Below, in pieces: positions 3,026 to 58,819 of a stretch of DNA of 64,000 nucleotides. Position 1 is the first letter of the stretch. Each line of letters begins with the position of its first letter. The DNA is from an uncultured Candidatus Saccharibacteria bacterium. GTDB taxonomy: Bacteria > Patescibacteriota > Minisyncoccia > Phycocordibacterales > JAKFXT01. The DNA is taken from the NCBI GenBank assembly GCA_964385825.1, contig CAYLPX010000003.1:37559-101558 (forward strand). The letters run 5' to 3'. Made by a program: the position numbers and the translations under genes. Below the pieces are notes generated by a model. It was not told the DNA's origin. It saw only the letters and a program-made list of their open reading frames with translations, and did no database searches.

Positions 3026-4339
3026 CTATCTTCCCTCCAAAATATCAATCTGCTTTTGGAACTTATCAGCCAAATCAAGCACTTCATTACCATAGAATGC
3101 GTAGGCTGGCTTTGTCGCATTTTTCCACCCCGCCAGGTATCGCAAAGCAGCTAAACGCTCTGTTGAGCGGACTCCATTTTTAGCGCCATTATCTGTTAGA
3201 AGGAGCGCTGAGGCATAAAACGCATCACGAGGATCCCATGGATTCGGTGGTTTATTGCCGGTAATAGCTGTAATGCGATCTTTGTAGAGTACCCAAGTAG
3301 AAGGGATAAACTGCGCGGGCCCCATGGCTCCCCCATACCCGTACCAAGCTTTTTTAGACACGGGCATTTGATCAGGATCAAGCCCTAACTCCTTACAAAT
3401 CTGCTCGAAGATCGGCTTATCTCGAGTCGGATGCATATCTATATTCCAATTCCCTGTTCCCACGTTCTGTCCAAGATTTGATTCTTCAGCAATAATACCG
3501 AGAAGGAAGGCGGGGCGAATACCTAGCTTTCCCCCAACCTCTTTGGCGTAAGTATAAGCAACCTCAAATGAAATAGCTGCTGATCCTTGAAGTTGGAACA
3601 GTTCCTTTTTTATCTGTGCAGCGGTTAGTTTTTGTTGTGCTAGCACTAACTGGTACTGCTTCTCAAGACCCTTTGAAATTTTCAGAATATTATTCTTTTC
3701 CTTTTCTTGCTGTTCAATCTTTGTTTTCTCAAGCTGTTGAAGATGAAGTAGCTCTGTTTGCTCAGCCCTCTTATCCTCTAGAGTCTGTTTCTCTTCTTCA
3801 GTTTGACTCTTAGTATCACTAACCACACCAACTGAAGTTTGCAGGGAATCCTTGATAGCAACATACGAGTTGGCATCAGAGAAAAAGTTTGCCAAACTTT
3901 TCTTATTTACCAACATTAATTCAACTAAGGAGTAGTCATCGAGCTCCTGTGATTTGCGTAAAATTTGACCTAATGACTCCTTTTCCTTATCGAGCTTATC
4001 AGATAGTACACCGATAGTTTGTTGTTTGGCCCCAATATCATCAGAGAGCTGTTCTATTGTGAGACTGCGAGCTTTTATAGAAAGCTTCGCTTGGCTGATT
4101 TTGGCATCTAAAATAGCAATATCACCAGCCAGGGATTCAGATTCTTTTTGGCGATCCTCTAGAATTTTTTGTTGCTGGGCTATTTGGCTTTCAACATCTG
4201 CTAGCTGTTTTGTTAATTCTGCCCTCCGATCAGCAGAGAGTGATCCTGTGGGAGCGCTCTGCGCCAAAAGATTAAGTGGGGACAAGAGAAAAATACCCAA
4301 AAACCCGAAAATGAAAAAATAAGTATTTTTCATGAACAA
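3026..4339 (-). CDS. Secreted coiled-coil protein with C-terminal lytic murein transglycosylase (MltB/SLT_2-like) domain
   Basis: Signal peptide, then about 230 aa of Q/K/E/L-rich coiled coil. C-terminal domain carries the catalytic ES (IIAEESNLGQ) and the family-3 LT motif GGAMGPAQFIPSTW. Confidence 0.6.
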   Translation of the reverse strand: MFMKNTYFFIFGFLGIFLLSPLNLLAQSAPTGSLSADRRAELTKQLADVESQIAQQQKILEDRQKESESLAGDIAILDAKISQAKLSIKARSLTIEQLSDDIGAKQQTIGVLSDKLDKEKESLGQILRKSQELDDYSLVELMLVNKKSLANFFSDANSYVAIKDSLQTSVGVVSDTKSQTEEEKQTLEDKRAEQTELLHLQQLEKTKIEQQEKEKNNILKISKGLEKQYQLVLAQQKLTAAQIKKELFQLQGSAAISFEVAYTYAKEVGGKLGIRPAFLLGIIAEESNLGQNVGTGNWNIDMHPTRDKPIFEQICKELGLDPDQMPVSKKAWYGYGGAMGPAQFIPSTWVLYKDRITAITGNKPPNPWDPRDAFYASALLLTDNGAKNGVRSTERLAALRYLAGWKNATKPAYAFYGNEVLDLADKFQKQIDILEGR

Positions 4340-5466: not shown

Positions 5467-6330
5467 CTACATTCCATTAAACAACTTAAGTCGTGCGGTA
5501 ACCGTTTCCTGCATAGCTTCAAGTGCCGGTTTCATAATCTTGTACGGTGCTACTTCATCCGGGTTTTCTGCCAAAAACTTTTTCACTGCATCACGATATG
5601 CCACACGAATCTCGGTATTAATATGAACTATGGCAACTCCACTTTTGATAACTCCCGTAAAATCTTCATCCACTGTTCCCGATCCTCCATGAAGTACAAG
5701 GGGAACTCCTGTTGAAAGTGCGATTTCCCGAGTACGTTCAATATTAAGCCGCGGATCTTTCACATTGCGAAGCATGCCATGAATGTTGCCAACAGATGGA
5801 GCAAAAAAGTCTATACCTGTTTCTTCTACAAAGCGCTTGGCCTCCTCAGGGGTAGTAAGATTCTCAAGTGACACCCCTTCTGGTATTTCATCCAGCACCT
5901 TAGAGGAAGTTCCAATATACCCGAGCTCTGCTTCAACCATAATTTCTCTGCCCGAGGCACGCGCATACTCCACACACTGCTTGGCAATTTTTGCATTTTC
6001 TTCAAAAGGAAGTTTAGCCCCATCAAAAATAACTGAATCAAAACCAGCATCTATTACTTCCTTCACTCGCGGAAATGAGTAGGTATGATCAGCGTTGAGA
6101 TAAATAGGATAATTAAATTCCTTTTGAATACTTCGCACCAACGCCACCACCTGTGGAATACCGATAAAATCTCTCTCTCCCTCTGATACCCCGATAATAA
6201 CTGGAACATTCAAACTTTGGCCCGCCCTAAAAATGGCCCACAACCCTTCTAAGTTACTAATATTAAAGTGCCCAACCGCTACTCCACGCGCTTTTGCGTC
6301 AAAGACTGTTTCCTTAAGTGATTTTTGCAT
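5467..6330 (-). CDS. fba: Class II fructose-bisphosphate aldolase
   Basis: GVAVGHFN near the N-terminus, LHGGSG motif, 287 aa: class II FBA/tagatose-bisphosphate aldolase family. Confidence 0.85.
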   Translation of the reverse strand: MQKSLKETVFDAKARGVAVGHFNISNLEGLWAIFRAGQSLNVPVIIGVSEGERDFIGIPQVVALVRSIQKEFNYPIYLNADHTYSFPRVKEVIDAGFDSVIFDGAKLPFEENAKIAKQCVEYARASGREIMVEAELGYIGTSSKVLDEIPEGVSLENLTTPEEAKRFVEETGIDFFAPSVGNIHGMLRNVKDPRLNIERTREIALSTGVPLVLHGGSGTVDEDFTGVIKSGVAIVHINTEIRVAYRDAVKKFLAENPDEVAPYKIMKPALEAMQETVTARLKLFNGM

Positions 6331-6383: not shown

Positions 6384-7391
6384 ATGTTCGGCAAAAAAGA
6401 GGAATTTGATTTCGTAGCTGTTGGTGACATTGTCACTGATGCCTTCATTCGTTTGGAAGATGCCAAGGTTCACTGCACTGTAGACCATGAAAATTGCGAA
6501 CTCTCTATGCGCTTTGGGGATAAAATCCCTTATGAATTCGTTGAGGTTATACGGTCAGTAGGTAACAGCCCAAACGCCGCTGTTTCCGCCTCACGCCTCG
6601 GACTTAAAACAGCCCTTGTTAGTGACCTTGGGGATGATGATATCGCCAAAGACTCTATTGCAGCACTTAAGGGTAATGGCGTTGCCACAACTTTTGTTAG
6701 TCTACATGATGGGATGAAGAGTAATTACCATTATGTACTATGGTTTGAAGATGATCGCACTATTCTAGTTAAGCATTTTGACTATCCTTACTCCTTCCCT
6801 GATGTGGGTAATGCTAAGTGGCTTTACCTTAGTTCGCTTGGTGGCACCTCACTTCCCTACCATAAAGAAATCATTGAGCATCTCAAGAAATACCCTGAGA
6901 CAAAATTAGCTTTTCAACCAGGCACCTTTCAAATGAAACAAGGTATCCCAAAACTGCGTGAGATCTACACCAGAACTGAAGTATTTTTCTGCAACGTACA
7001 AGAAGCGCGTCGTATCCTAGGGGTTGAAAATGATCCAGTTGGAAGACTCCTTCGCCTCATCCACAGCGAAGGGCCAAAAAATGTAGTTATCACCGATGGT
7101 AAAGATGGTGCATATGCTTATGATGGGAAAAATGCTTGGTTCATGCCTCCCTACCCTGATCCTAAGCCACCATACGAGCGAACAGGAGCGGGCGATGCTT
7201 TTGCCTCAACCCTAACTTCAGCCCTAGCACTCGGCAAGAGTTTAGACGAAGCTCTAATGTGGGGACCTATTAACTCTATGTCGGTCGTACAACAAATAGG
7301 AGCACAGAAAGGACTCCTTAAGCGGGGAGATCTTGAAAACTTCCTCTCTCACGCACCTGCCAACTACAAACCACAAAAAATTACTGAGTAG
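6384..7391 (+). CDS. PfkB-family carbohydrate kinase (ribokinase-like)
   Basis: C-terminal PfkB signature GAGDAFAS and an N-terminal Gly-rich VAVGDIVTD. Start placed at the ATG at 6384 (MFGKKEEF...) rather than the ORF-track start at 6318, which would overlap fba. Confidence 0.75.
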   Translation: MFGKKEEFDFVAVGDIVTDAFIRLEDAKVHCTVDHENCELSMRFGDKIPYEFVEVIRSVGNSPNAAVSASRLGLKTALVSDLGDDDIAKDSIAALKGNGVATTFVSLHDGMKSNYHYVLWFEDDRTILVKHFDYPYSFPDVGNAKWLYLSSLGGTSLPYHKEIIEHLKKYPETKLAFQPGTFQMKQGIPKLREIYTRTEVFFCNVQEARRILGVENDPVGRLLRLIHSEGPKNVVITDGKDGAYAYDGKNAWFMPPYPDPKPPYERTGAGDAFASTLTSALALGKSLDEALMWGPINSMSVVQQIGAQKGLLKRGDLENFLSHAPANYKPQKITE

Positions 7392-8082
7392 AAAGTACAA
7401 TTCCTCTACCTGCGTAATACTCCGCAAATTCGGTAAATAGCATTGAATGGTTAATTTGGGTATGTGTACTAACAAAGCCGGAGGGGTTATTAATTAAAAT
7501 TACATTTTTGTTTTTGTCATAACCAGTCACTAAAACAAGATGTCCTCCCTTTTGGTTTACTGGAGCCGTATTGTACCCTCTTATATTTGGATTAACCGAA
7601 ACAATAACCAATTTACCTTGTGCAAGTGCATACAAAATACCTTTGATGCTTAATTTTGTATAAATATCTGCCTTTAAACCATATTTCTGAATCCAATCGG
7701 CAAACTCCCTATACCTCATACTAGAGATATCTTTTTTCTCTTCAATATAAACTCCGTTCTTTAAAGCATCTTCCGCTAACAGAACTACTTTAATATTCTT
7801 ATTTGTGAAGTATTGAAGTGCCATAGATACCGAAGCCATCCCGCACATAGTAAACGCCCACTGACTATATCGCTGTGAGGATGTGGCTCCTGTATCTTTC
7901 CAGTTTAAATCATCAACTGGAGAAAGTATTTTCTTTAAACTTAATTCAGCACTTAAAGGAGTAGCGAACTGACACACGTAAGGAACATTGTATTTTATTT
8001 CATCAGGTATTTTCCTAGCACGATTTTGAACTTCATATATAAAGTTTTTTACTTCTTGAAGTAAACGGAAAATAATTTTCAT
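7381..8082 (-). CDS. Papain-like cysteine peptidase, C39-like (Peptidase_C39_2-type)
   Basis: Candidate catalytic Cys in FTMCGMASVSMAL and downstream His in GGHLVLVTGYD. About 230 aa, typical of stand-alone C39-like domains. Confidence 0.5.
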   Translation of the reverse strand: MKIIFRLLQEVKNFIYEVQNRARKIPDEIKYNVPYVCQFATPLSAELSLKKILSPVDDLNWKDTGATSSQRYSQWAFTMCGMASVSMALQYFTNKNIKVVLLAEDALKNGVYIEEKKDISSMRYREFADWIQKYGLKADIYTKLSIKGILYALAQGKLVIVSVNPNIRGYNTAPVNQKGGHLVLVTGYDKNKNVILINNPSGFVSTHTQINHSMLFTEFAEYYAGRGIVLSTQ

Positions 8083-8109: not shown

Positions 8110-9096
8110 CTAGCGACTAAGTACTTTCTGCACTGCCTCCTTAATATGAGAAACTCCCATACCATAATGCTCTATCAGTTCCTCTGGGGTACCAGATTGA
8201 CCAAACTCATTGTGAACTCCAATGTATTCAATGGGTACTGGAAATACTTGTGAGAGATACTCTGCAACAGCGCTCCCCATACCTCCGGCTATTTGATGCT
8301 CCTCTACTGTTACTACCCTACCTGTCCGCTTCGCCTCGCGAAGTATAGTTTCAGTATCAAGGGGTTTTATAGTTGAAAGGTTTACCACCACCACTTCCAC
8401 TTTTTCTTTTTCTAGTTCTTTTGCAGCAACAAGTGCTTTATGTACCAAGGCACCTGTTGCAATAATAGTTACCTTTGGGTTTTCAGCATCCCAGAACACA
8501 TGTGCCTTCCCTATTTGAAATGGTGTCTCTGCTGTAGTCATAACCGGCGTTGGTTCGCGAGCAAGACGCAGGTATGCGGGACTTGGAACTTGGGCGAGCG
8601 CCAATGTAGCTTTTTTCGCCTCAAGCATGTCGCAGGGTGATATCACCATCATATTCGGTAACACCCGAGTTATCGCCATATCCTCCACCGCTTGATGAGT
8701 TGCGCCATCAGGCCCCACTGATACACCTGCATGGCTTCCGGCGATTTTGACATTACTGTTGTTGTAACAAACTGTTGTACGAATTTGTTCCCAGTTACGC
8801 CCAGGGCTAAACATGGCATAGGAAGAAATAAAAGTGATTTTCCCCATAGCTGCCATTCCCGAAGCAACCGAAGCCAAGTTTTGCTCGGCAATCCCTATTT
8901 CCACGAAACGATTGGGAAACTCTTTTTTGAAAATATGCATTGTCGTTGACTCAGTAAGATCAGCACAAAGCCCCACTACCCGTTCATCTAGTTGTGCGGC
9001 TTGTAATAGACCCTCTCCGAAACCTTTGCGGATAGGCGCCTGTTCACCGTCTTTGTCAAATAATTTACTATTTAGTTTTAAGTTTTTGTTTAACAT
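8110..9096 (-). CDS. tkt: Transketolase, C-terminal subunit (pyrimidine-binding + C-terminal domains)
   Basis: 328 aa matching the C-terminal half of transketolase (FGEGLLQAAQLDERVVGLCADL..., GIAEQN...). Partner N-terminal subunit lies upstream. Confidence 0.85.
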   Translation of the reverse strand: MLNKNLKLNSKLFDKDGEQAPIRKGFGEGLLQAAQLDERVVGLCADLTESTTMHIFKKEFPNRFVEIGIAEQNLASVASGMAAMGKITFISSYAMFSPGRNWEQIRTTVCYNNSNVKIAGSHAGVSVGPDGATHQAVEDMAITRVLPNMMVISPCDMLEAKKATLALAQVPSPAYLRLAREPTPVMTTAETPFQIGKAHVFWDAENPKVTIIATGALVHKALVAAKELEKEKVEVVVVNLSTIKPLDTETILREAKRTGRVVTVEEHQIAGGMGSAVAEYLSQVFPVPIEYIGVHNEFGQSGTPEELIEHYGMGVSHIKEAVQKVLSR

Positions 9097-9101
9097 ATTG
9101 T

Positions 9102-9281
9102 TTAGCCCCTCCCCAAGTCACAGATATTTTTCTGCTGAAAAATTCTGCAACCCCGCCTCGCGCCGTCGCGCTGCGGCCTTGGAATACTCCAAGTATTCGT
9201 ATCCCAACCCTTACGAATAGGAAGTTGCTCTACATCTTTATCGAACACTTTTTCATTTAATTTTGAAGATTGATTAAGCAT
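9102..9281 (-). pseudogene. Fossil duplicate of the tktB 5' end fused to GC-rich sequence (59-codon ORF)
   Basis: Hand translation gives MLNQSSKLNEKVFDKDVEQLPIRKGWDTNTWSIPRPQRDGARRGCRIFQQKNICDLGRG*. The first 25 aa match the real TktB N-terminus MLNKNLKLNSKLFDKDGEQAPIRKG at 18 of 25 positions, with many synonymous third-position differences. The remainder is G+C-rich and unrelated. Stop lies 5 nt before the real tktB ATG. Confidence 0.45.
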
Positions 9282-9612
9282 AAAAATATCTAAAGAGAAT
9301 TAAACTCAGAGCAACAATTGGAATGGAGTAACTTAAGGAAACTAACAACTTACTACCTTCTACTTCCTTTTTTAAAAAGGAAACTAAATCAATTAAAAAG
9401 CCAATTAGTACAAAAACTATATTAAGTAATGTAAATATAGCAGTAAAAAATTCTGGCCACTCTTGGCTAACTCCCCTTGAAGTATAGATGAGGTCATGCT
9501 CATTTAATATGTATGCAAGTATGGTCATAAAAAACTGAATCATAATAACCCAGAAAGCAAGTCTCAAAAAAATATTCTGTTTAAAGATACTTATATTCAT
9601 ATTTTTATTCAT
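9274..9612 (-). CDS. Small integral membrane protein (112 aa)
   Basis: Start chosen at ATG 9612 (MNKNMNISIFKQ...). It overlaps the stop of the upstream transketolase subunit (ATGAATAA). Three predicted TM helices. Confidence 0.5.
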   Translation of the reverse strand: MNKNMNISIFKQNIFLRLAFWVIMIQFFMTILAYILNEHDLIYTSRGVSQEWPEFFTAIFTLLNIVFVLIGFLIDLVSFLKKEVEGSKLLVSLSYSIPIVALSLILFRYFYA

Positions 9613-10474
9613 GCTCAGCTTTAATTTTCCCACCAAGTGTTCGTAGTTCCCGAAGCGCCATCTCTGCCTCTTCTTTCTTTGGTGGCTTGCCATGCCACTC
9701 TGGGCGATGTTCAAACTCAAGAACTCCTTTTCCAGGGATGGTGTGAGCAATAATGACCGAAGGTTTTTCAAATACTGCCTGCGCCTCATTAAACGCGCGA
9801 TCAATAGCGGCAATATTGTGCCCGTCTACTTCCTCCACATGCCAGTTGAACGACTCCCACTTAGCGCGGAGTGACTCAAGCGGCATGATGTCTTCAGTGA
9901 ATCCATCGATCTGAATATTGTTGCGATCTACTATAGCTATGACGTTGTGCAATTTCTCTTTTCCGGCAAGCATAATAGCCTCCCAATTCTGACCTTCATC
10001 AAGTTCTCCGTCTCCCATAAAACAATAAAAGAATTTCTCGGTCGCGCGGCCAAAATCTATCCTGTCTGCGAGTGCCATGCCGACTGCCTGCGAAAGCCCC
10101 GAACCAAGTGGACCAGAGGAAGTTTCAAGTCCAGGGAGTGCTTCTTTATGTGGGTGCCCCTGAAGACGCGAACCAAACTTACGAAGGGTTTTAAGTTCAG
10201 AGACAGGGAAATATCCAGCGTGAGCCATAGTGGCATAAAGTACTGGGCAAATATGTCCATTACTCAAAATCACCCGATCGCGCTTATCCCATGTTGGTTT
10301 CTTTGGATCATGACGAAGGGTGTGAAAGTATAGTGTAGTAAAAATGTCTGCCATACCAAGTGGTCCTGCCGTGTGTCCTGAACCAGCTTCAAGGAGCATT
10401 TCAATAATAGACTTACGAATATCATTCGCTTTTAGTTCCAGCTCCTTTATTTTTTCATCACTTAAATGTTGCAT
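9605..10474 (-). CDS. tkt: Transketolase, N-terminal (thiamine-diphosphate-binding) subunit
   Basis: GSGHTAGPLGMADIFTTLY, GHICPVLYA, GDGELDEGQNWEA: TPP-binding half of transketolase. Confidence 0.85.
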   Translation of the reverse strand: MQHLSDEKIKELELKANDIRKSIIEMLLEAGSGHTAGPLGMADIFTTLYFHTLRHDPKKPTWDKRDRVILSNGHICPVLYATMAHAGYFPVSELKTLRKFGSRLQGHPHKEALPGLETSSGPLGSGLSQAVGMALADRIDFGRATEKFFYCFMGDGELDEGQNWEAIMLAGKEKLHNVIAIVDRNNIQIDGFTEDIMPLESLRAKWESFNWHVEEVDGHNIAAIDRAFNEAQAVFEKPSVIIAHTIPGKGVLEFEHRPEWHGKPPKKEEAEMALRELRTLGGKIKAEHE

Positions 10475-10476
10475 AA

Positions 10477-10923
10477 CTATAAGCTTCTATAATTTATTTT
10501 ATAAAGATGAAAAATAAAACGGAAAAGACTGTAAACAACAGCTGCTTCTGTGGCCAAATAACCTATTGAGAGCTCATCAGTAAGTGGGAAAATTGGATGC
10601 GCTAAAAACGTAGTGTCCGTATTAGAAAAAGTGATTACATACCAAAATTTTATTATCAAAACAATCAAAATTATAGATAGCAATTGTAAAATTGCGATAT
10701 ACGCCCTTAAAAACAACTTCATCTCTTTATTCTTAAAAGTTCCTGTATAGATAAAAAAATAGTTCACGAGTAAAAAAAGTATAAGACAAGGGGCGATAAA
10801 AAATAAATAGTTTACGGGACCAAAAATTTGAGACAGTACCCCATAGTAAGCTATCCCTACAGTTAAATACACCGCAGAATATATAGTCAACAAAAAATCT
10901 AAAAAAGTAATTATTTTTTTCAC
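10477..10923 (-). CDS. Integral membrane protein (148 aa, 4-5 TM)
   Basis: Highly hydrophobic ORF 2 nt upstream of the tkt N-terminal subunit, in the same operon. Confidence 0.5.
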   Translation of the reverse strand: MKKIITFLDFLLTIYSAVYLTVGIAYYGVLSQIFGPVNYLFFIAPCLILFLLVNYFFIYTGTFKNKEMKLFLRAYIAILQLLSIILIVLIIKFWYVITFSNTDTTFLAHPIFPLTDELSIGYLATEAAVVYSLFRFIFHLYKINYRSL

Positions 10924-18630: not shown

Positions 18631-19599
18631 TTAAGCCCCTAAGATCTTGGTTATTTCCTCACTTAGTGTTTTTACAGCGCTATCATCAAGTACTGAAACT
18701 GTTAGCACTATTTTTGCTAACTTCTTAGCTTCTTTTACTTTTTCCTTTATAACTGATGGGTCTACCATATCAGTTTTAGTAAGGATAATAACCTCCTCCT
18801 TTTTAATCAGTGCAGGAGCATACTTACGAAGCTCTTCTCGCACTGTAGTATAGGTTCCCTTAATATCCTCGGTTTCAAGCGAAATACAATGAAGTAGAAC
18901 TCGGGTGCGAGTAATATGCCGAAGAAACTTATGCCCCAATCCCCTACCCTCACTTGCTCCTTCAATGAGTCCCGGAAGATCTGCCAAAATAAGTCCATAG
19001 AGGCTACCCAAGTTTGGCTCAAGGGTCGTGAACTGGTAGCTTCCAATTTTTGCCTTGGCATTGGTAAGTGCGTTAAGAAGACTGGACTTACCAGCATTCG
19101 GTAGTCCGATAAGTCCCGCGTCCGCAATAAGCCGAAGTTCAATACTAAAATTACCCTCCTCACCCTTCTCCCCCGGTGTCCATTCAGTTGGTGAACGGTT
19201 AACAGAACTTTTGAAGTGGTCGTTGCCAAGCCCCCCTCGGCCACCATGGAGTAATATTTCTTTTTGCCCCTCTTCGAGTATCTCAACAGCTCGGCCAGTA
19301 TCAAGATTGCGAATCTGTGAGCCGAGTGGCACTTCAAGAAGAAGATCATCACCCTGCGCACCCTGCTGCTTATTCTTAGATCCTGGTTCACCATCCTTTG
19401 CGGCAAGCTCCTTCACATTGCGATAGCGAATGAGAAGACCCAAATCACGTACACCAACAGCATACACATCACCCCCCTTGTTACCATTGCCACCTGATGG
19501 GCCGCCAAGCTGAATCCCTTTTTCATGACGCCAACGAACAACCCCATCGCCCCCGCGACCGGCCTTGAGGTATATTTTCATTTCATCAATAAAAGCCAT
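18631..19599 (-). CDS. obg: GTPase Obg (minimal form lacking C-terminal extension)
   Basis: Gly-rich Obg fold (AGRGGDGVV..., GGRGG) plus G1 motif GLPNAGKSS. 322 aa, so only the Obg and G domains are present. Confidence 0.85.
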   Translation of the reverse strand: MAFIDEMKIYLKAGRGGDGVVRWRHEKGIQLGGPSGGNGNKGGDVYAVGVRDLGLLIRYRNVKELAAKDGEPGSKNKQQGAQGDDLLLEVPLGSQIRNLDTGRAVEILEEGQKEILLHGGRGGLGNDHFKSSVNRSPTEWTPGEKGEEGNFSIELRLIADAGLIGLPNAGKSSLLNALTNAKAKIGSYQFTTLEPNLGSLYGLILADLPGLIEGASEGRGLGHKFLRHITRTRVLLHCISLETEDIKGTYTTVREELRKYAPALIKKEEVIILTKTDMVDPSVIKEKVKEAKKLAKIVLTVSVLDDSAVKTLSEEITKILGA

Positions 19600-26211: not shown

Positions 26212-26316
26212 AAGTGTTCGCTTCGTCTCCTTCGCCGTCAGCAGCTTCCGGCATAAGTGTTCGCTTCGTCTCCTTCGCCGTCAGCAGCTTCCGGCATAAG
26301 TGTTCGCTTCGCTCCC
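26212..26316. repeat. 43-bp GC-rich tandem direct repeat, 2.4 copies
   Basis: aagtgttcgcttcgtctccttcgccgtcagcagcttccggcat occurs exactly at 26212-26254 and 26255-26297. A diverged partial third copy (aagtgttcgcttcgctccc) follows. Confidence 0.85.
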
Positions 26317-26321
26317 TTAAA

Positions 26322-38742: not shown

Positions 38743-39096
38743 ATGGAACCCAGACTAAGTGGTGATGAAAATGCGGAGATAAAGAAGGTAGTTCAGCTCT
38801 CGTGGGTGGCCCCACTCGGCCTTGCCCTCCTTCTCTTTTTTTTCCTAATCGGGTTGATTTATGAATCACTAAAACCAACCTTCAGTATTTGCGGTGTTCT
38901 TGAATCCCACTCACGAGAGTCTTATTCACGGGAAACAAGAATTCAATTCAAAAATGGAGAAAACGTAGTCCTATACCGACTCTTCAAAACAGATCTTGTT
39001 GTGGGAAGAAAGTATCGTGTTGTATACCAACCCGCGGGGCATGAAAATCGACTTAACTTCGCCCAAAAGTTTACTGAGGTTGAGTCATGTCAGTAA
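38743..39096 (+). CDS. Small membrane protein (117 aa)
   Basis: Single TM (LGLALLLFFFLIGLIY) and a short soluble domain. Followed by a strong terminator. Confidence 0.4.
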   Translation: MEPRLSGDENAEIKKVVQLSWVAPLGLALLLFFFLIGLIYESLKPTFSICGVLESHSRESYSRETRIQFKNGENVVLYRLFKTDLVVGRKYRVVYQPAGHENRLNFAQKFTEVESCQ

Positions 39097-53997: not shown

Positions 53998-54025
53998 GAA
54001 AAAGGCCGGATGTCACCGTCCGGCC
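53998..54025 (-). terminator. Rho-independent terminator of the island-1 ORF
   Basis: ggccggatgtcaccgtccggcc (7-bp perfect GC stem) preceded on the plus strand by gaaaaa (a T-run on the minus strand), 18 nt after the ORF stop. Confidence 0.5.
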
Positions 54026-54042
54026 GACCAGCCCCACAACGT

Positions 54043-58594: not shown

Positions 58595-58819
58595 CTACTG
58601 CGGCCGCATGGGAACGTACGCGCCGTTCCTGAAACACCCCTTCGTGAAATTCGTCACCGGCATTGCGCGGAGCTCCGCCTCGGCAATGCCAGCCGTCGTC
58701 GGATTACCGCTGAACCGCCGCCTTGCCCGGCGCAGCGCCACCTTCTTCTTGTGGAGCGTAGCGCCATTCACCGGCCGCCGGTTTTGCTTTCCGTCGTTTC
58801 CAGGTTGCTTCAAGGGCAT
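58595..58819 (-). CDS. Small GC-rich ORF P2 (74 aa, basic, unknown function) with strong SD
   Basis: MPLKQPGNDGKQNRRPVNGATLHKKKVALRRARRRFSGNPTTAGIAEAELRAMPV... Upstream is CCTCTAGGAGACTTACATG, the same GGAGA-N6-ATG geometry as P1. Confidence 0.4.
   Translation of the reverse strand: MPLKQPGNDGKQNRRPVNGATLHKKKVALRRARRRFSGNPTTAGIAEAELRAMPVTNFTKGCFRNGAYVPMRPQ

Follow-up and report, generated by a model that had tools for sequence, protein, structure and literature searches.

A truncated tktB duplicate, split by a conserved structured element, beside the intact gene in a patescibacterial genome

Immediately upstream of the intact tktB gene in the 64,000-nucleotide stretch of DNA analysed here (the window) lies a second, fossil tktB start, which is genuine and statistically solid. 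The fossil is split by an 89-nt insert, here called E, one of a family of conserved, structured elements for which neither Rfam 15 nor the searchable literature has an entry. Typically, E lies within a truncated duplicate of an essential gene whose intact copy is kept, as seen at tRNA genes and at tktB, and the window holds the protein-coding version of this rule. On balance, we favor reading the locus as the tktB case of a recurrent architecture in which a truncated essential-gene duplicate, split by E, stands beside the intact gene (Table 1).

Table 1. Features of the tktB locus in window coordinates
Feature	Position	Strand	Basis or remark
tktA, encoding the N-terminal transketolase subunit; upstream in the operon	9605..10474	(-)	ORF of 289 aa; Pfam Transketolase_N on the identical L001 gene
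Membrane-like orphan ORF, 112 aa, between tktA and the fossil	9274..9612	(-)	Its stop codon and the fossil ATG overlap (ATGCTTAA)
Fossil tktB 5′ end, part 1: codons 1-25 and first base of codon 26	9206..9281	(-)	Identity to 9096-9022
Element E, 89 nt	9117..9205	(-)	Covariance-model match, fold, excision restoring FGEGL
Hairpin 1 of E, arms TTGGGATAC / GTATTCCAA, loop GAATACTTGGA	9179..9207	(-)	5′ arm begins at the fossil/E junction
GC-rich 28-mer: P2/P3 and foot of P4 of E	9151..9178	(-)	
Fossil part 2: remnant of codons 26-30	9103..9116	(-)	12/15 nt identical to resident codons
Leader ORF, 59 codons, from the fossil ATG through E to a TAA ending 5 nt before the tktB ATG	9102..9281	(-)	
Resident tktB, intact (transketolase C-terminal subunit, 328 aa)	8110..9096	(-)	
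Recombination tract common to the window and L096	8985..9252	(-)	92-98% identity; edges approximate (60-nt windows)

The 59-codon open reading frame (ORF) given in the preliminary description is present, and its first 25 residues agree with residues 1-25 of TktB at 18 positions (48 of 75 nucleotides). When the 185-nt interval was shuffled 20,000 times, neither value was reached, the maxima being 9 of 25 residues and 40 of 75 nucleotides (nucleotide mean 30.1, s.d. 1.8), and the next best match to the TktB N terminus in the six frames of the window was likewise 9 of 25. Codons 1-25 of the fossil and the resident gene comprise 11 synonymous, 7 non-synonymous and 7 identical positions. The differences had been described as mostly synonymous, which holds by codon (11 of the 18 differing codons) but fails by nucleotide, because synonymous codons hold just 12 of the 27 nucleotides that differ. 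They are of all types and are not confined to template adenines. Part 1 of the fossil is 21/25 identical to the N termini of relatives that do not carry E. Its ATG overlaps the stop codon of the preceding membrane-like ORF. The earlier proposal stands that the upstream segment is an orphaned original start, the dead 5′ end of a tktB that formerly began right behind the preceding gene. That ORF matched only itself in a protein search, and its position is taken by unrelated ORFs or by none in other lineages. Its own start (MNKNMKLNE) was considered as an older tktB fossil and set aside, as only 4-5 residues match.

The homology had been thought to stop at a GC-rich segment. Instead, it ends at 9206/9205, ~28 nt before the GC-rich core, and resumes past the insert. 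Only 7 positions of the 27 nt that follow fossil codon 25 match tktB, whereas excision of exactly 89 nt (9205-9117) joins GGT-T to TT-GGG-GAG-GGG-CTA. Nucleotides 9116-9103 together with T9206 then read TTT GGG GAG GGG CTA, that is FGEGL, the counterpart of resident codons 26-30. The fossil after excision reads MLNQSSKLNEKVFDKDVEQLPIRKG-FGEGL-NN-M (MLNQ...PIRKG-FGEGL), and the real tktB ATG lies six nucleotides past its second part. Because excision restores both the reading frame and the homology, the fossil represents tktB codons 1-30 split after codon 25. The exact length of the excised segment also rules out a 1-nt deletion in the remnant that follows E in the window.

The window's own population is represented by at least 14 independent assemblies that are 100% identical over the region and are therefore uninformative for a comparison of strains; no polymorphism between empty and filled sites was recovered. 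Protein searches with the 59-aa and 112-aa ORFs found no pre-insertion allele of the window type. Among sister genomes, L097 (TktB 92% identical) has tktB directly after tktA, and L016 and L098 (89% and 88%) have it behind a different membrane ORF, in each case without a fossil. The arrangement in the window is not unique. L096, from the same sample series and with flanking genes only 78-79% identical to those of the window, combines a membrane ORF of the L016 type and a fossil that is an L016-type start (MLIPTLNQ...) with the window's insert after the same codon (5 differences in 113 nt) and the window's new start. In L100/L101 (TktB 76% identical), a third, unrelated membrane ORF precedes a third fossil (MLNENAKLNPKIFDEDVEKVPVGK) and a homologous insert, and the L100 fossil has a 1-nt deletion.

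With the further carriers L118, L125 and L174, E is found in six tktB lineages, after the same codon where this is readable and always with a fossil. A second N-terminal segment is confined to carriers (the window, L096 and L100/L101) among ~88 tktB loci, and the ~85 loci without E have no fossil. The remnants after E elsewhere read FGEGL in L096 and FGKGLL in L125, and the junctions between remnant and linker differ among tktB carriers. TktB N termini come in forms of 21, 23 and 25 residues; fossil and resident starts are both good matches to real N termini of other lineages, of different types within each carrier. A reading in which the fossil is native and the resident start unusual in every carrier was therefore dropped, as both match real N termini equally well.

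In the inferred structure, the element consists of hairpin 1, a 3-bp helix (P2), a tandem G.A, a GCGC-GACG-GCGC hairpin (P3), which has an optional extra pair in some copies, and a 16-bp hairpin (P4) with an AGCA loop. In the window, the E region folds with z = -3.9. Structure statistics were obtained from 48 distinct cores aligned with MAFFT, in which 96.1% of cells pair, compared with 32-56% when the partners are slid. Double compensatory changes affect 9 pairs, compared with 1-4 in the slid controls, and none of 500 shuffles reached any of the observed pairing measures. The pair at columns 35-63 is an invariant G.U (48/48 sequences), so the fold is strand-specific, the strand being the sense strand of the neighboring gene. 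The middle pair of P2 is C-G, U-A or A-U among copies. Copies with the extra P3 pair, which MAFFT misregisters, have G-C at this position by eye, so that apparently all four Watson-Crick combinations occur. The gapped search pattern fixed 21 nucleotides of E and thus partly imposed the conservation at those columns.

The 5′ end of E varies more in sequence than in pairing. The stem of hairpin 1 differs in L100 (CTGAAATGC/GCATTTCAG) and in L125 (CTGGAATGC/GTATTCCAG) with its pairing kept. About two-thirds of the copies have such a local hairpin of arbitrary sequence ahead of the core, whereas about one-third have a closing stem (P1) instead, the 5′ arm of which is complementary to the copy's own 3′ flank. 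P1 stems reach -9 to -17.5 kcal/mol in ~13-18 of 50 copies (permuted mean -5.4), although the signal across all copies is modest (p=0.02).

Downstream of the fossil, the ORF of the window differs from that of L096 by four substitutions, three within E and one just 3′ of it. Mapped onto the structure of the 48 cores, the three convert A-U to G.U, G-C to G.U and U.G to C-G, whereas all four are non-synonymous in the leader ORF. Selection thus acts on the fold of E rather than on the leader peptide. Another reading, with the spacer as a donor gene's 3′ end (frame +2 reads ...EYSKAAARRREAGLQNFSAEKYL*), was dropped because the spacer is a conserved fold and its substitutions ignore all frames. A consensus scan found neither a promoter nor an intrinsic terminator inside E.

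A covariance model built from the copies of E (R1) matches the window at 9116-9181 (88.6 bits, E=3e-21) and, with filters off, finds no other copy there. The GC-rich piece had been likened to the islands at 54-61 kb, but nothing else in the window matches the 28-mer at up to 3 mismatches, and kinship of E with the other GC-rich stretches of the window was rejected. Looking for the segment in metagenomes, as had been suggested, proved productive. A scan with a 29-mer gave no match, and the gapped pattern matched 70 stretches, of which ~60 are true copies. At E<=0.001, the covariance model gave 82 matches in the metagenome loci. Of these, ~75 fall on the strand of the element itself, and individual contigs hold several diverged copies. 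In other tktB loci, the model also found weaker, shorter variants. No copy was found in a viral contig collection. E is widespread and is provisionally ascribed to Patescibacteria.

Rfam 15 gave no match at the gathering threshold in the window, chance-level matches only (E>2) in 8950-9450, and, for 16 further loci, no hit to E with E<=0.1, so that a TPP riboswitch or other known leader has no support from it. The searchable literature yielded no instance of the core sequence and no account of such an element or architecture. Around 56 copies, no transposase, reverse transcriptase (RT), TnpB or integrase recurs within 3 kb; the recurrent proteins are TktA/TktB and two small conserved unannotated proteins only. 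Possible functions include a small RNA co-transcribed with tRNAs and a selfish DNA or RNA element.

The same architecture is found at many tRNA genes. A tRNA gene lies within 300 nt of 28 of the 53 unique copies, in contigs with one tRNA per ~5 kb, and all 28 are co-oriented with it. Where E is upstream of the tRNA, the order is leader and tRNA 5′ part, E, a short diverged continuation, and then leader and intact tRNA. Duplicates of this 5′-fragment kind are found in L112 (37/40), L124 (34/40), L129, L148, L156 and L169, and a near-identical repeat at a tRNA is also present in L150 (36/40). Where E is downstream, a duplicate of the tRNA 3′ fragment follows it in 12 of 18 copies (z 6-16); these duplicates are exact, lie shortly or in several cases immediately after E, and often start in the T-loop. 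Since the repeats at tRNA sites are nearly identical, they are recent and local. Hairpin 1 often abuts the tRNA 3′ end. We also considered E as a tRNA intron; its deletion in silico restores a tRNA in 1 of 53 copies, a doubtful case, and E is thus not intron-like in behavior.

The comparison with L096 reveals how the formed block moves. Sliding identity between the window and L096 is 92-98% only at ~9250-8985 (~270 nt), whereas the flanks are 75-83% identical. The shared tract spans E and the remnant together with the fossil's 3′ half on one side and the new start with ~40 codons on the other. Downstream of the tract, L096 is 95-100% identical to L016. Within it, the 3′ half of the L096 fossil matches the fossil of the window (GTA/CAA/CTT) and not the window's resident start, and the resident start of L096 with its 40 codons is entirely donor-like. 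A tract at 92-98% against a background of 78-83% indicates that the block moves by homologous recombination, and because both of its ends lie in homologous sequence, the transfer was a double-crossover import of a pre-formed block. The whole block is thus exchanged between diverged Paceibacteria by homologous recombination. As fossil and resident start are of different allele types, DNA from diverged relatives has been involved, and such differences within carriers are expected if blocks are passed around. The earlier proposal of incoming DNA from a diverged relative is borne out to this extent, with a visible tract and differing allele types, but the imported piece is not a GC-rich element plus intact tktB. 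Nor does a pair of one homologous and one illegitimate junction fit, since both tract ends are homologous and the joint between fossil and GC-rich DNA is the 5′ boundary of E, which recurs.

The leader ORF is open in all five complete carriers and, counted from the real ATG, its stop lies at -5, -5, -6, +7 and +7 nt; in L100, the frame across E is a different one. Among 5.8 billion proteins, the 59-aa product matched only itself. Relatives share the arrangement, as noted above, but the peptide is not conserved among them, which speaks against a functional small protein at this position. The second part of the fossil contains GGGGAGGGG, that is GGAGG, a Shine-Dalgarno-like motif ~10 nt before the real ATG, and we infer that this FGEG-coding remnant serves as the tktB Shine-Dalgarno sequence. 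Translation in this operon probably still starts at the fossil ATG. Ribosomes arriving from the upstream ORF would then read through E and stop at the real ATG, leaving tktB translationally coupled. The open leader ORF could be taken to fit such coupling, weakly so because two of the three E frames are stop-free, the carriers are few, and the window and L096 are not independent.

In the mechanism that we favor, insertion of E into an essential gene would be survivable only if the event left an intact copy as well, which would explain why only partial-duplication outcomes are seen. The founding event might be single-crossover integration ('ends-in' or circular) of a gene fragment bearing E, or a homology-anchored event whose other end joined just outside the gene. 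Once formed, the block would spread to related genomes by double crossover, with gene sequence on either side serving as arms, which would make the fossil and the resident start different alleles. The fossil pattern of L096 contradicts a simple circle model there and indicates that this transfer, at least, brought in a ready-made block by double crossover. The insertion nucleotide is the same in six lineages with differing remnant/linker junctions, which could reflect target specificity of E rather than spread by recombination alone. More tentatively, and as a possibility that we would not yet call probable, E may be a so far undescribed kind of selfish structured element of Patescibacteria, enzyme-free in its vicinity, that rides truncated duplicates of essential, highly conserved genes (tRNAs, tktB) and homes into the same gene of other genomes by its flanks or by a flank-templated closing stem, a poison plus built-in spare copy that would let the host survive.

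The main rival to this recombination-based account is target-specific, non-autonomous transposition of E, guided by RNA or a trans-acting enzyme, as for an IS200/IS605-type mini-element or a retro-element. The insertion chemistry itself would then make the flank duplication and, in one-third of copies, the inverted copy of the 3′ flank seen as P1. The identical point of insertion in tktB (GGYT^T) despite differing remnant/linker junctions, the preference for D-loop and T-loop positions of tRNAs, and the near-identical and hence recent in-place duplicates at tRNAs would all follow. The same is true of P1 stems, whose 5′ arm complements the 3′ flank with T-loop bases included, and the T-loop site GGTT^CGA resembles, by eye, the tktB site GGTT^TCGGA. 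The identical insertion point, differing junctions and flank-matched stems are the reason that transposition is kept as the main rival. We nonetheless consider it rather unlikely, as no transposase, TnpB, RT or integrase family recurs within 3 kb of E, the copies have neither common terminal inverted repeats (TIRs) nor a target-site duplication of fixed length, the duplicated flanks vary from ~30 to ~100 nt, the P1 signal is modest over all copies, and plain homologous recombination accounts for the window and L096. A one-off homology-facilitated illegitimate recombination (HFIR), in which GC-rich DNA with intact tktB entered through a homologous end downstream and an illegitimate end at codon 25, is much less probable still. 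In its favor, the two starts are alleles that have diverged at many synonymous sites, the locus has evidently recombined with diverged relatives, and the process is documented in naturally transformable bacteria (PMC3240628). Yet the junction is identical to the nucleotide and the insert is 89 nt in six lineages with different fossils, the fossil goes on beyond the insert, the insert is one of a conserved structured family with ~60 copies elsewhere, and the visible transfer tract is homologous at both ends. Moreover, HFIR typically deletes recipient DNA, whereas the locus shows a duplication (PMC3240628).

E might instead be a host RNA gene or cis-regulatory leader, inherited vertically, with the gene fragments incidental; it could, for instance, be a small RNA processed out of tRNA co-transcripts or control the translation of tktB. 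Its strand-specific fold with the invariant G.U, its co-orientation with all 28 adjacent tRNAs, the hairpin 1 that often abuts the tRNA 3′ end, its place directly before the tktB ribosome-binding region, and substitutions that keep the structure and not the peptide would all suit such a role. We find this improbable, because E is missing from ~85 of ~90 tktB loci, those of the closest relatives L097 and L016 included, which rules out a regulator conserved with tktB. Contigs can also hold several copies in differing contexts, and the strict tie to truncated duplicates of neighboring genes would be unexpected of a resident RNA gene. An expressed E is compatible with a mobile one. That the 59-codon ORF encodes a functional small protein is hardly credible, even though each of the five complete carriers keeps an intact frame from the fossil ATG and several assemblies call it as a gene. 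Besides the missing homologues, L100 reads a different frame across E and has the 1-nt deletion in its fossil, four of the four differences between the window and L096 in the E part and the tail after it are non-synonymous, and the sequence of the tail is dictated by a conserved nucleic-acid fold.

The favored architecture shares features with several known systems without coinciding with any of those compared here. HFIR creates an illegitimate joint with 3-10 bp of microhomology, usually with a recipient deletion of similar size, and single-crossover integration of a circular molecule, the main by-product documented there, yields partial duplications of 109-950 bp (PMC3240628). HFIR would be plausible in Patescibacteria, which are believed to import DNA. 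Similar to HFIR, foreign DNA at the tktB locus is anchored by homology to a resident gene, with mosaic junctions and orphaned gene pieces. Unlike HFIR, with its one homologous end, the tract common to the window and L096 is homologous at both ends, and a duplication takes the place of the deletion, with the supposed illegitimate joint being the conserved boundary of an element in six lineages. The candidate illegitimate joint is that between remnant and linker, GGGGCTA/AACAAT. Campbell-type integration gives the same order of gene fragment, insert and intact gene with direct repeats (tktB codons 1-30; tRNAs), and survival would be limited to the orientation that leaves the essential gene intact. 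It would also leave reciprocal donor/recipient hybrid repeats, a pattern that L096 does not have. Phages, integrative and conjugative elements and genomic islands that integrate at tRNAs and bring a substitute for the gene end they displace resemble E in their tRNA neighborhood and in leaving a truncated duplicate of the target by the intact gene, a duplicate that can be a diverged allele in both cases. In contrast to these, E is 89 nt long, has no integrase within 3 kb, is associated with both 5′ and 3′ fragments, is inserted in the D-loop, T-loop and variable region as well as in a protein-coding 5′ end, and is a covarying fold rather than an att core.

REP/REPIN sequences, MITEs and palindrome-associated IS200/IS605 elements are, like E, short, multi-copy, hairpin-rich and non-coding, with enzyme-free surroundings. 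E differs from all of these in its strand-specific fold with a conserved G.U and in lying inside essential-gene fragments rather than in free intergenic space. An alignment of 49 copies shows no common TIR of the MITE kind, and the flanks repeat over ~30-100 nt with a short diverged continuation of the target between. Neither RAYT nor the TnpA and TnpB of IS200/IS605 elements was seen within 3 kb of 56 copies, and the 5′ flanks (…AAGGGTT, …CTTAG, …CAGCTGG) have no fixed short motif. A group I or II intron is not indicated, with no Rfam intron match on E in 17 sources, a length of 89 nt and an intact gene copy always adjacent; the group I introns of patescibacterial tRNAs described in the literature are unrelated to E. 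By inspection, the junctions GTTGGGA, GTTGGGG and GCTGGAA misfit the GTTRRRY of integron attC sites, and no RYYYAAC partner was seen. For a diversity-generating retroelement, no RT was found within 3 kb and the differences are not adenine-specific. In Vibrio cholerae, type VI secretion system (T6SS) effector modules reportedly displace one another sequentially, leaving orphan immunity genes and gene remnants. Both cases involve recombination-driven replacement at a conserved locus with tandem fossils of the previous allele, whereas the T6SS modules are of kilobase size, are selected through interbacterial competition and include no structured mini-element.

If the favored reading is correct, E would add a new and abundant structured element to a bacterial radiation that ranks among the largest and the least understood. 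It would account for 'pseudo-starts' and tRNA fragments that are annotated as hypothetical small proteins in Patescibacteria, and would give a direct view of ~270-nt tracts moving between genomes that are ~20% diverged. It would also offer a tractable example of how a mobile insert can sit in essential genes while the host survives. With the covariance model (66 positions, 23 pairs), the family can be searched for, which brings within reach tests of whether E acts as RNA or DNA, of a trans-acting partner and of its copy number per genome.

Short, diverged relatives of E, the conserved, structured 89-nt element that splits the dead duplicate of the tktB 5' end (the fossil), are found directly beside tktB, the transketolase C-terminal subunit gene, in the Paceibacteria genomes L084 and L089. 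They are on the strand opposite to the gene and consist of a GAGCGCGACGGCGCGAG hairpin and an AGC-loop hairpin; neither genome has a fossil. In a further locus, L053, the TktB N-terminus contains an in-frame insertion (…FDKDPATGVASVLEVPIRKG) that immediately precedes the conserved PIRKG and lies near the E insertion point. At the other end of the gene, the E carrier L096 loses its similarity to every relative over the final ~60 codons of tktB. The protein predicted there ends in an aberrant C-terminus; possible causes are a frameshift, a chimeric assembly or a further insertion.

Three loci (L106, L120 and L128) have a shorter E-like piece between a tRNA and E, for example ...GGGATTCGAAAGCCGGAATATCTCGCAC..., which resembles both ends of E joined with the middle missing and may be either a deletion derivative of E or a second related element. 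Two copies of E stand in tandem in L137. The 12-kb L110 holds at least five; in two of them the 5' side is extended by the same segment (CATCAATGGGTAGTGAGTAGAGAT), which in turn occurs as a tandem repeat.

The pentose-phosphate operon of the window includes three small extra genes, all absent from the closest relatives, L016 and L097. At the junction between tktA, the N-terminal subunit gene, and tktB, three lineages have one membrane ORF each, unrelated to one another, and two lineages have none.

Across the entire 64-kb window, no tRNA genes were found and no Rfam family reached its gathering threshold. Against a window G+C of 41%, five other short stretches reach at least 75%; none of them is a copy of E. 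The window also contains a tandem repeat.

Positions of features in the window and in related or E-bearing loci
Feature	Position	Strand	Remark
233-aa Peptidase_C39_2-like ORF	7381-8082	(-)	between tktB and pfkB
Orphan 112-aa membrane ORF	9274-9612	(-)	precedes fossil
148-aa membrane ORF	10477-10923	(-)	between rpe and tktA
Tandem repeat, 43-nt unit	26212-26318		two exact copies and a partial third
G+C-rich stretches	3311-3342, 19535-19571, 38801-38830, 54004-54035, 58655-58746		
Short E relatives	L084:4047-4103, L089:2916-2972	(-)	opposite strand
TktB insertion	L053:3001-3080		
Divergent tktB end	L096:~5800-5945		window-equivalent below ~8290
Tandem E copies	L137:28-242		149 nt apart
16S rRNA gene with group I introns	L129:2917-4266		

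The E-bearing contig L129 has group I introns inside its 16S rRNA gene, a typical trait of Patescibacteria. Introns in tRNAs have likewise been described for Patescibacteria (PMC13011429).
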